Assembly (NCBI GenBank): GCA_964520905.1 | Contig: CAZFQL010000001.1 | Coordinates: 183,216-247,215, forward strand | Direction of reading: 5' to 3' | Origin: an uncultured Chlorobiaceae bacterium | GTDB taxonomy: Bacteria > Bacteroidota > Ignavibacteria > UBA10030 > SZUA-254 | Length of the DNA stretch: 64,000 bases | Part shown: piece after piece, positions 3,953 to 5,924 of the stretch | How positions within the stretch are numbered: the stretch's first letter is position 1 | Layout: the number at the start of each line of letters is the position of its first letter | Translations under genes and position numbers: made by a program | The notes under the pieces: generated by a model | Told to the model about the DNA's origin: nothing | Database searches by the model: none | The model's input: the letters and a program-made list of their open reading frames with translations, nothing else

Positions 3953-4030
3953 TTATCCAATATTCTCAAACCCCGTATGCTTATGCAGCGCTTTCGGCAC
4001 AATCACTTTTCCTTCGGGGTCTGGTAATAC
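3953..4030 (-). pseudogene. Relic duplicate of the serS 3' end (last ~23 codons plus stop)
   Basis: About 85% nucleotide identity to 4662-4739, the true serS 3' end. My minus-strand translation gives ...[23 protein letters not shown] against SerS ...[22 protein letters not shown]. The similarity begins exactly at the stop codon. Confidence 0.7.
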
Positions 4031-4071
4031 CGGGCAATTAATTCATCGAATAAATTCAAGCTAATTTGGGT

Positions 4072-4368
4072 TTAGCGCTTTGATTTTTTCTTTAGGATAT
4101 CTCGCGATGTATGAAGCACAGCAAGAATATCAATTTGATCTGGTTTGATGTAATAAATTATTCGAAATGGATGTTCAATAACTTCGCGAATCTGTTTAAT
4201 GTTAAATTCCGGTACGGACCTACCCGAAAGAGGAAAATCTGTAATTTGTTGTGATCGTCGTGTTATGCGATCAACTATTCTTGTCGCGTAATCGGCAGAT
4301 GTATGAGATATGTAATCGTGGATGCTTTGCAGATGATCGGTGGCTGTATCTGTCCAATGGACATTCAC
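4072..4368 (-). CDS. RelE/ParE-family toxin (type II TA)
   Basis: 98 aa of the size and composition expected for RelE/ParE; overlaps the upstream 68-aa gene by 4 nt. Confidence 0.7.
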   Translation of the reverse strand: MNVHWTDTATDHLQSIHDYISHTSADYATRIVDRITRRSQQITDFPLSGRSVPEFNIKQIREVIEHPFRIIYYIKPDQIDILAVLHTSRDILKKKSKR

Positions 4369-4571
4369 TTTTGTAAACCGAACTTTGCGCGGATTTCTTT
4401 TACATCTTTCGTTCGCCCTGCCTTGCTATCAGCTAACCCAGCTTCAATCGCCTGTCGAACATAGATTTCATACATGAGATCATCCCAAGTCGCCTTGCTG
4501 GGAAGTTTTTCTACAATCTTTTGCGCTTCTTCTTTTACCATGCCCATAAATAAATCCTTATAAATATTCAC
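4365..4571 (-). CDS. Antitoxin partner of the RelE/ParE toxin
   Basis: 68-aa ORF directly upstream of, and overlapping, the toxin gene. Confidence 0.55.
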   Translation of the reverse strand: MNIYKDLFMGMVKEEAQKIVEKLPSKATWDDLMYEIYVRQAIEAGLADSKAGRTKDVKEIRAKFGLQK

Positions 4572-4579
4572 TTGTCAGT

Positions 4580-4608
4580 ATAATACAAAAATATCGTGTT
4601 TGTTTCAA
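4580..4608 (-). promoter_or_regulatory. Putative sigma70-like promoter of the RelE/antitoxin operon; near-leaderless
   Basis: On the minus strand, TTGAAA (complement of 4603-4608), a 17-nt spacer, then TATTAT (complement of 4580-4585). The antitoxin ATG follows about 9 nt after the -10 element. Confidence 0.35.
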
Positions 4609-4658
4609 GATTATGTATGCCGTGAGATACAGACTGAAGATGGTTATCGTTTTTCCCT

Positions 4659-5924
4659 CTATCCAATCACCTCAAACCCAGTATATTTATGCAACACTTT
4701 TGGCACAATCACTTTTCCCTCCGGTGTCTGGTAATGCTCTATGAGTGCCGCAACAACTCTTGGCAGCGCCAGCGCTGAGCCGTTTAGTGTGTGAATAAAT
4801 TCCGGCTTTCCTTCTCCGCGCGGACGGAAACGGATATTCATTCGCCGCGCCTGAAACGATTCAAAGTTGCTAATTGACGAAACCTCGAGCCATCGCTGCT
4901 GCCCGATAGACCATACCTCAAGATCGTATTTCTTCGTCTGTGTAAATCCCATGTCGCCCGTGCACATGAGAAGCGTGTGATAATGCAGTCCCAATTTCTG
5001 GAGAAGCAGTTCGGCATCTTCGCGTAAACTCTCAAGTTCGTTGTACGAGACACCCGGGTGGACAAATTTTACTAATTCAACTTTATCGAACTGGTGCAGT
5101 CTGTTTAAACCGCGAACATCCTTACCATACGAACCGGCTTCGCGGCGAAAGCATGGCGTGTACGCACAATATTTTACAGGGAGCTGATCTTCCTTCAGAA
5201 TTTCGTCTCGGTGAATGTTTGTTACCGGAACTTCCGCTGTCGGAACGAGATACAATTCATCCTTAGTTGCAACGTACATCAAATCTTCTTTATCTGGAAG
5301 TTGTCCTGTGCCTGTTGCGCTGTTTGCATTCACCATAAGCGGCGGCTGAATTTCTTTGTATCCTCGCTTCGCGGCTTCATCAAGAAAGAAATTGATCAAC
5401 GCACGCTGTAACTGTGCACCCTGTCCTTTATATAAAGGAAAGCCCGCGCCTGAAATCTTTACACCACGCTCAAAGTCGATGATATCAAGCTTTTCAGCAA
5501 GTTCCCAGTGAGGTTTCGGTTTGAAATCAATTACAGGTGCTTCGCCCCACTTTGAAATTTCTTTGTTGTCGGTCGGCAGTTTTCCAACAGGAACAGATGG
5601 GTGTGGAATATTTGGAATAGTGAGCAGGAGTTGATTCAAAGATTTTTCAATCAGCGCGAGGGCATCATCAATAGATTTGATCTCTGTTTTCACTTCATCC
5701 ATTTGTGAGATCGCTGTTGCGGCATCTTTTTTTTCACGCTTCAGTTTACCGATTTCATCTGAAACGACGTTGCGTTTGTTTTTTAATACTTCAACCTTCT
5801 GAAGAAGTTCTCTTCGTTGTAAATCAAACTTCAGCGCTTCATCAATATTATCTTCGCCTCCTTTTTTTAGGATGCCTTCCTTAACTAAGCCTGGGTGTTC
5901 ACGAATGAATTTAATATCAAGCAT
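4659..5924 (-). CDS. serS: Seryl-tRNA synthetase
   Basis: 421 aa with an N-terminal coiled-coil and a class II catalytic core; full-length SerRS architecture. Confidence 0.95.
   Translation of the reverse strand: [421 protein letters not shown]

Follow-up and report, generated by a model that had tools for sequence, protein, structure and literature searches.

In the window analysed here, a stretch of 64,000 nucleotides (nt) from contig CAZFQL010000001.1 of an uncultured Chlorobiaceae bacterium (Ignavibacteria), a small cassette with a predicted ParE/RelE toxin-antitoxin (TA) pair lies directly behind the seryl-tRNA synthetase gene serS and is bracketed by two copies of the serS 3' end. The DNA examined shows that an insertion has interrupted the ancestral gene order, that the cassette recurs at one site and moved horizontally, that the repeat copies are xenologous and that the duplications vary in length and target; no recombinase was found in it. 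We read this as a homology-anchored form of "insertion with long target duplication" that has a TA pair as cargo, a reading that we hold with about equal confidence and reserve. The locus bears on the question of how TA modules enter chromosomes, with edges that are defined to the base and an empty site that is known from dozens of relatives. Every genome compared is a metagenome assembly. The serS comparison set consisted of 80 loci of species-level Ignavibacteriota and relatives (genome relatives, L002-L081), and 4-6 kb of flank on each side was examined for about 90 related loci, next to the 64-kb window for the own genome. Below, W stands for the window genome, and B (L083/L084), C (L082), D (L164) and E (L170) for further lineages that carry insertions at this site.

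As listed in Table 1, the two serS ends lie in the same orientation. The repeat search gave an ungapped direct repeat of 65 nt with 83% identity (3954-4018 versus 4660-4724), and once the deletion of 1 nt from the distal copy is allowed for, the alignment extends through ATTACCAGAC, with 64 of 77 positions identical over 78 columns. The last 78 nt of serS plus the stop codon are repeated 706 nt downstream. The similarity ends at the stop codon of each copy, TAA in the distal and TAG in the proximal one, and in the 5' direction at positions ~4031 and 4740, at ATTACCAGAC. The 1-nt deletion puts the reading frame of the distal copy out upstream of PDPEG. Local alignment of the serS tail with its own downstream DNA resulted in z = 29 over shuffles in W and in values of at most 3.4 in all other 79 related loci, and a 35-nt consensus of the repeat (up to 3 mismatches) matched twice in the 64 kb, at these two copies, with 0 matches expected, which together exclude chance as the origin of the pair. 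The same consensus revealed no third serS end in the 64-kb window, and the scan of the 80 serS loci found no downstream serS remnant apart from that of W. A preliminary description, made from the letters alone, had already reported this pair of direct repeats ending at the stop codons, and the translations that it gave for the distal and native ends are exact; its ranges were 3 nt out of register, as 3953-3955 is the distal stop codon and a start at 4662 leaves out the proximal one. Its view that serS is intact thanks to the second 3' end also holds. An assembly artefact was considered and rejected, since the W locus is 100% identical over 11.9 kb in an independent Logan assembly, and the lineage B arrangement was reproduced in separate assemblies of ENA and JGI data with 1 mismatch in 1539 nt.

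The insert between the repeats measures 627 nt (4032-4658) and contains, as described earlier, the TA pair alone, that is, a promoter, an antitoxin gene and a toxin gene. Antitoxin stop and toxin start overlap by 4 nt (GTGA). The antitoxin gave no Pfam match, and a weak NCBIfam match to RelB/ParD (E=0.0095) that lies under the cutoff. With its toxin signature, coupled upstream antitoxin and own predicted promoter, the pair is, as judged from sequence, a type II TA system of the ParE/RelE superfamily, and dN values of 0.014-0.046 suggest that both genes are under purifying selection. The promoter-like site is kept in three lineages, and in the three-way alignment the first ~40 nt past the serS stop are less conserved between lineages. 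The junction of the right spacer with the distal repeat lies at one identical position in W, B and C. The 3' end of the W toxin gene (4072-4090) has a 1-nt insertion relative to B and C, so that the protein counts 98 instead of 103 amino acids (aa) and ends in ..KSKR instead of ..KSKSKTKPA.

The gene order RmlD-serS-ABC1-ABC2, in which ABC1 and ABC2 stand for ABC-transporter genes, is conserved across the eighty serS loci. In 56 of the 68 loci with both genes, the serS stop lies at most 200 nt from the ABC1 start, with some overlapping, versus a gap of 3517 nt in W. Since serS is found near ABC1 in most relatives, all W DNA between the two genes has been inserted. The relative L002, with 93% SerS identity, is without the cassette, and its serS end matches the proximal W copy at 67 and the distal copy at 63 of 78 positions. 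The earlier expectation that sister genomes would have serS followed by the 3616-3864 region was not borne out: in the sisters serS abuts ABC1, and 3616-3864 belongs to an insert specific to W. This insert, consisting of the 3616..3923 open reading frames (ORFs) and the AMP-binding gene, has no flanking repeats. Neither part gave a tblastn match downstream of serS in L002-L081, and in B and D the serS-ABC1 gap is occupied by different DNA than the 2062..3923 genes of W.

The only close relatives of the W toxin (97% and 89% identity) sit at the same site in other lineages, and the next ones share at most 73% identity. In lineage B, serS is followed by the ParE cassette, an intact second serS end, an unrelated 199-aa gene and ABC1. 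In lineage C, a DUF2283 gene comes directly behind serS, followed by a decayed serS end and the ParE cassette; a truncated serS end then separates this cassette from a gene for a secreted protein, and an orphan methylase gene precedes ABC1. Lineage D has serS, a DUF4258-like fragment with DUF2283, a serS end that is 90% identical to the end of its own gene, 13 nt, a promoter copy, a VapBC cassette, another promoter copy and ABC1, and lineage E, the closest relative by serS (88.9% nt identity), has serS, an 82-aa DUF4258-like gene with DUF2283, and then a second, intact copy of the serS end of 155 nt. Three kinds of small cassettes are differently combined over five lineages, each bracketed by copies of the host sequence that it interrupts. 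Synonymous divergence (dS, Nei-Gojobori estimates) between W and B was 0.08 for the TA genes, against 1.2 for serS and 0.97 for ABC1. Between W and C, serS was saturated, with 2.2 for ABC1 and 0.24 for the TA genes; between B and C, both serS and ABC1 were saturated, with 0.23 for the TA genes; and between W and D, serS was saturated, with 1.6 for ABC1 and 0.40 for VapC. The nucleotide identity of the cassette core was 91-94.5% versus 75-87% for serS. A dS of 0.08-0.25 for the TA genes, against 1.2 to saturation for serS, indicates horizontal movement to one shared site, and one cassette is found in three hosts at ~15-fold or more under the synonymous divergence of its neighbours, while cassettes of different kinds are stacked at one and the same gene end. 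It is therefore very improbable that the locus goes back to a single ancient insertion or segmental duplication that descended vertically, was lost from most lineages and has not been mobile recently. The right junction common to W, B and C would suit such a history, as would the host-like divergence of the repeats and of the first 40 nt of the cassette, but vertical descent plus losses is unable to give a TA dS ~15 times below that of serS and ABC1 between W and B, or one far under saturation between W and C, and lineage E has another cassette with another repeat length, and L002 has none.

The two copies within one genome are 83-90% identical, and their differences, 58 in total when W, B, D and E are summed, fall on codon positions 1, 2 and 3 in a ratio of 12/7/39 (P=1.4e-7 versus a uniform distribution; P=0.006 versus 50% third positions). 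The distal copies have intact frames in B and E, and a frameshift, decay or a nonsense codon in W, C and D. The third-position bias and the intact distal frames indicate that most of the divergence arose while both copies were working serS ends in different lineages. Judging by these substitution patterns, a foreign serS end came in with the DNA, and the resident target was not simply copied. That the copies appear to be alleles of different lineages points to homology-anchored capture of foreign DNA, a clue to the mechanism that the near-identical repeats of the restriction-modification cases do not offer. A true long target-site duplication, in which staggered cuts ~80-150 nt apart are followed by gap filling and the copies are identical at first, has a formal structural likeness to the locus, and its lengths would vary as they do in restriction-modification insertions, which have near-identical repeats (PMC2853133). 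Yet it is quite improbable here, given copies of only 83-90% identity, with 39 of the 58 differences at third positions where a decaying duplicate would change evenly, intact distal frames in B and E, and a cassette dS between W and B (0.08) that is far less than the divergence between the repeat copies within one genome.

On the 3' side, the duplication in every case stops at the stop codon, give or take ~4 nt, and its 5' limit lies at -78 for the ParE cassette, at -155 for the DUF4258-like/DUF2283 cassette in E, and at -103 or further upstream in C. When W is compared with B, the repeats show host-like divergence (84-87%), except for the left half of the distal copy, which is identical at 33 of 35 positions, indicating that this half travels with the cassette. 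All three cassette-adjacent copies (W, B and C) have a TAG stop, versus 13 of the 67 native serS ends. Comparison of the left and right halves in an identity matrix, as a test for the original copy, gave no clean clusters, the W, B, D, E and L002 copies being alike at 57-70 of 78 positions.

The preliminary description had interpreted the repeats as attL and attR of an integrase-dependent element. In such a scheme, a tyrosine or serine recombinase, present elsewhere or lost, acts on the serS 3' end, and the cassette is an integrase-less remnant or was moved in trans. Integrase islands and their integrase-less derivatives are found at the 3' ends of housekeeping or tRNA genes, as in the case of ICESt1/3 and the cis-mobilisable elements at fda. 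Site-specific integration would fit direct repeats that stop at the stop codon, a second 3' end that restores serS, the one right junction common to W, B and C, and the presence of at least two different cassettes at the serS end, in tandem in lineage C by order of decay. Islands at the 3' ends of housekeeping genes are well known, SGI1 at trmE being one case (PMC8409611). Elements of this class share with our locus the 3'-end repeats, element-borne gene restoration, tandem accretion and TA genes as stabilising cargo. However, neither an integrase nor a transposase was seen in the ~90 related loci, a check based on the gene-call Pfam tables of L001, L082, L164 and L170 and on inspection of ORFs, not on a full scan, and no larger parent, that is, no element above ~2.4 kb, was seen at the site in 68 species-level relatives; the cassettes themselves measure 0.3-0.9 kb. 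Moreover, the duplicated length varies by cassette (78 versus 155 nt), and the crossover position is not fixed; adjoining cassettes duplicate other targets, an ABC promoter and a leader hairpin, with no common motif, and homologous ParE cassettes of other phyla duplicate quite different host sequences. The 64 kb hold no third copy of the site, and no counterpart of the cassette was found in viral contigs (pattern scans) or in plasmids and phages (blastn). Site-specific integration is unlikely in our view, although it is the alternative to be taken most seriously. We dropped the idea that GCATAAGTATAC within the repeat is dif/Xer-like, as the equivalent of the XerD arm is absent and the motif corresponds to the LHKYT codons. 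Of the two origins that had been suggested, a mobile minicassette is supported by the dS contrast and the use of one site in three lineages, while a decayed island is conceivable, with no relic of intermediate size seen.

As to our homology-anchored reading, we infer its molecular steps and its vehicle, as well as a stabilising role of the TA pair. DNA from a related lineage would carry its own serS end, directly followed by the cassette, and would recombine with the resident serS through their common serS sequence. The far end of the cassette would then be rejoined to the resident gene ~78 nt before the stop, where the fragment or break began, either because a circularised fragment integrated through a single crossover or because homologous repair of a break from one end was followed by illegitimate end joining. 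The expected outcome would be the serS body with the functional 3' end that came in, then the cassette, and behind it the resident 3' end, now displaced, and the old downstream DNA. The repeat-flanked unit could subsequently spread among relatives by homologous recombination, with serS and the distal copy as arms. Recombination between the repeats would delete the unit, and the TA pair would penalise this loss, which would explain the persistence of addiction and defence genes between repeats. The integron literature offers a precedent for stabilisation by TA systems, and the idea fits post-segregational killing of deletion segregants. Such a mechanism would explain why the gene is intact, why the second end looks foreign, why the duplication stops at the stop codon and varies in its 5' limit, and why no recombinase gene was seen in the examined loci.

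Several observations weigh against this course of events. We found no circular form, no empty-site polymorphism within a population and no repeat-free serS-cassette donor. Between W and B, the proximal repeats share 84% identity, which is host-like, whereas a simple model of co-travel predicts ~94%, so that one has to assume either that the serS end was later replaced by homologous recombination or that crossovers fell near the cassette edge. The longest identical stretch between the W copies is 17 nt, a poor substrate for RecA-type recombination, and the three cassettes begin within a few bases of the serS stop, as would likewise be the case with a site-specific system. Flanks of 4-6 kb per locus and a 64-kb window leave room for a recombinase acting in trans, and for long target duplication as such the literature offers no established mechanism.

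The preliminary description had also suggested that TA genes are acquired in a recurring, cassette-like manner in this genome, and the VapBC genes of the window indeed show the identical bracketed architecture. The 47-nt repeat on both sides is the native ABC1 promoter region, which is present as a single copy in L002 and L084 that lack VapBC, and the duplication amounts to ~35-47 nt of promoter. Lineage D has the same VapBC cassette, joined at the same positions. Its vapB gene contains an in-frame TAA (L164 ~5889-5891; ..KKHQHR-stop-HKTLKFDW) where the window has GAA, and this antitoxin may be decaying, or the difference may be a sequencing error. In lineage C, the ABC1 leader hairpin is present three times (L082 6364-6399, 8168-8203 and 9114-9149; ~36 nt each), and the copies bracket a gene for a 607-aa protein secreted by the type IX secretion system (T9SS) and an orphan N6/N4 methylase gene, which shows that the repeat-bracketed design is not confined to TA pairs. 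Conversely, not all such genes are repeat-bracketed, since an orphan DUF2283 gene in the gap between a methyltransferase gene and prfA of other Ignavibacteria (L165-L169 ~4001-4222) has no flanking repeats. The DUF2283 family is strongly conserved between phyla (70-80% identity).

Outside the serS locus, we surveyed 66 metagenomic loci of various phyla with homologous antitoxin-ParE pairs, whose toxins are 60-72% identical. Significant direct repeats of 30-164 nt bracket 22 of these 66 loci, versus 0 of 44 controls of equal geometry that were moved by 1.8 kb (highest z, 3.7). About 13 of the 22 have one common, multi-copy, hairpin-rich repeat of ~120 nt, with up to 4 copies per locus at a spacing of ~700 nt (L105, L106, L107, L134, L132, L148, L161, L156, L120, L108, L138, L097 and L110). 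These loci look like cassette arrays, possibly of the integron type or of the CALIN type (clusters of attC sites lacking integron-integrases); clear R'/R'' boxes were not seen in them by eye. In 4 of the 22, the 3' end of a radical-SAM gene is duplicated; the duplicate in L115 keeps the reading frame and ends at the same stop codon. Other bracketed loci have duplicates of unique host sequences. For the serS locus, an integron-type gene cassette with the repeats as attC-like sites is scarcely credible. Promoter-bearing TA cassettes are common in chromosomal integron arrays (PMC3874152), where the pairs are likewise discrete and separated by repeats and have been proposed to stabilise the array against deletion, and the arrays of ~13 homologous ParE loci would agree with this origin. 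However, the repeats at our locus are host coding or promoter sequence and not attC hairpins, the serS end is single in every cassette-free relative, and no intI or other integrase gene was seen nearby. The repeat DNA folds no better than shuffles (z -1.96 to +0.98 across six strands, with only the distal copy plus spacer reaching -1.96), and Rfam gave nothing over noise.

Insertion with long target duplication has been described for restriction-modification systems (Nobusato et al. 2000, Gene 259:99; Furuta, Abe and Kobayashi 2010, PMC2853133), and a review of 2014 confines it to these systems (PMC3874152). A review of 2020 regards the mechanisms of TA integration as unelucidated (PMC7167474), and in the literature, which we covered incompletely, we found no account of such an insertion with TA cargo. 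Of the features by which Furuta et al. (2010) recognised these insertions, the serS locus has the empty site, repeats of >30 bp that align to a single-copy target, no mobility gene seen and an insert below 20 kb, and it differs in cargo, which is a ParE/RelE toxin with its antitoxin and not a restriction-modification system. As in the restriction-modification cases, a small addiction unit absent from relatives is flanked by variable direct repeats of tens to hundreds of bp, with no integrase or transposase seen; a stop or start codon often lies within the repeats, so that the target gene survives. An orphan methylase is a possible cargo there, and one is present in L082. In contrast to those cases, the cargo here consists of type II TA pairs, the repeats are 83-90% identical with mostly synonymous differences instead of mostly near-identical, one essential-gene end is re-used by different cassettes, resulting in tandem arrays, and the cassette was transferred between lineages with synonymously saturated housekeeping genes. 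The architecture is known, and the new points are the TA cargo, the xenologous repeats, the re-used essential-gene end, the tandem arrays and the transfer across deeply diverged hosts.

Homology-facilitated illegitimate recombination, reportedly described by de Vries and Wackernagel in 2002 for natural transformation, combines one homologous anchor with an illegitimate joint, which fits an incoming serS end plus cassette. The classical result differs in that recipient DNA is deleted and the anchor is not duplicated. More generally, we tentatively propose, while considering it somewhat less probable than the reading of the serS locus itself, that TA and defence genes travel free of a recombinase, dock by homology on the ends of conserved genes and duplicate these, that re-use of such ends creates integron-like arrays with host sequences as separators, and that addiction prevents deletion, both in the Ignavibacteriota and in a sizeable fraction of ParE loci elsewhere. 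If true, this would be a general and so far undescribed route of type II TA systems into chromosomes, and it would tie TA mobility to the long-target-duplication mode of Kobayashi's group. The survey result of 22/66 versus 0/44 makes the idea testable at scale.

Table 1. Features of the region from ABC1 to serS, with positions counted from the first nucleotide of the window
Feature	Position	Strand	Basis
serS, intact seryl-tRNA synthetase gene (421 aa)	4659..5924	-	ORF; Pfam PF02403 (Seryl_tRNA_N) and PF00587 (tRNA-synt_2b); orthologues in 80 loci
Proximal repeat, functional last ~26 serS codons and TAG stop	4659..4740	-	Repeat alignment, translation
Left spacer, 87 nt, with sigma-70-like promoter TTGAAA-17-TATTAT at 4608..4580	4572..4658	-	Promoter scan, three-way alignment
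Antitoxin gene, 60 aa from ATG 4547; longest ORF (to 68 aa) from GTG 4571	4365..4547	-	Gene call
ParE/RelE-superfamily toxin gene, 98 aa	4072..4368	-	PF05016, E=3.5e-16, 60 bits (cutoff 23); TIGR02385 RelE_StbE, 28.9 bits (cutoff 27.9)
Right spacer, 40 nt; joined to the distal repeat between ..TTGCCCGG and TATTACCAGAC	4032..4071	-	
Distal repeat, displaced non-functional serS 3' end with 1-nt deletion, Y-to-H, V-to-N and TAA stop	3953..4031	-	
Two overlapping ORFs	3616..3923	-	One partial DUF7670 match (E=9e-13, profile positions 15-68 of 118)
AMP-binding (acyl-CoA-synthetase-like) gene	2062..3582	-	Pfam PF00501, PF13193
Copy A of the ABC-transporter promoter region, holding TAGTTTTG (TAnnTTTG-like -7 box); native upstream context, upstream of vapB	2011..2057	-	
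VapBC cassette: DUF2281/VapB antitoxin gene (1652..1912) and PIN toxin gene (1245..1655)	1245..1912	-	PF10047, PF01850
Copy B of the promoter region, 83% identical to copy A, directly upstream of ABC1	1193..1239	-	
ABC1, 5' part of ABC-transporter gene, ancestral direct neighbour of serS; runs past the window edge	1..1142	-	

The two overlapping ORFs listed in Table 1 probably represent a frameshifted gene for a small membrane protein. In other relatives, the serS-ABC1 junction is occupied by further genes. L002 has a GapS1-family antiphage gene there (L002 6325-7833; E=3e-92), L073 a methylase and a putative nuclease gene (6287-7773), L008 and L014 the nuclease-like ORF alone (3734-4321 and 1406-1987, respectively), and DinB-like and other genes were found as well. 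The antiphage, methylase and nuclease-like genes, none of them bracketed by repeats, mark the junction as a hotspot for defence genes. The enlarged gaps of L002, L073 and L033 are without direct repeats. Repeats in the gap of L067 were rejected as brackets, being internal repeats of its own secreted-protein gene. A third long repeat in the window (53383-53481/54274-54372; 99 nt, 76%) was likewise set aside, as it reflects the C-terminal T9SS sorting domain shared by two tandem paralogues for secreted proteins on the plus strand (53032..53481 and 53491..54372). Finally, a small gene of the 23S-rRNA-intervening-sequence type (four-helix bundle) constitutes another small variable cassette at the locus: it lies between the two ABC-transporter genes (L001 12603-12983 and the corresponding place in relatives) in some relatives and is missing from others, and a similar gene fills the serS-ABC1 gap of L050.

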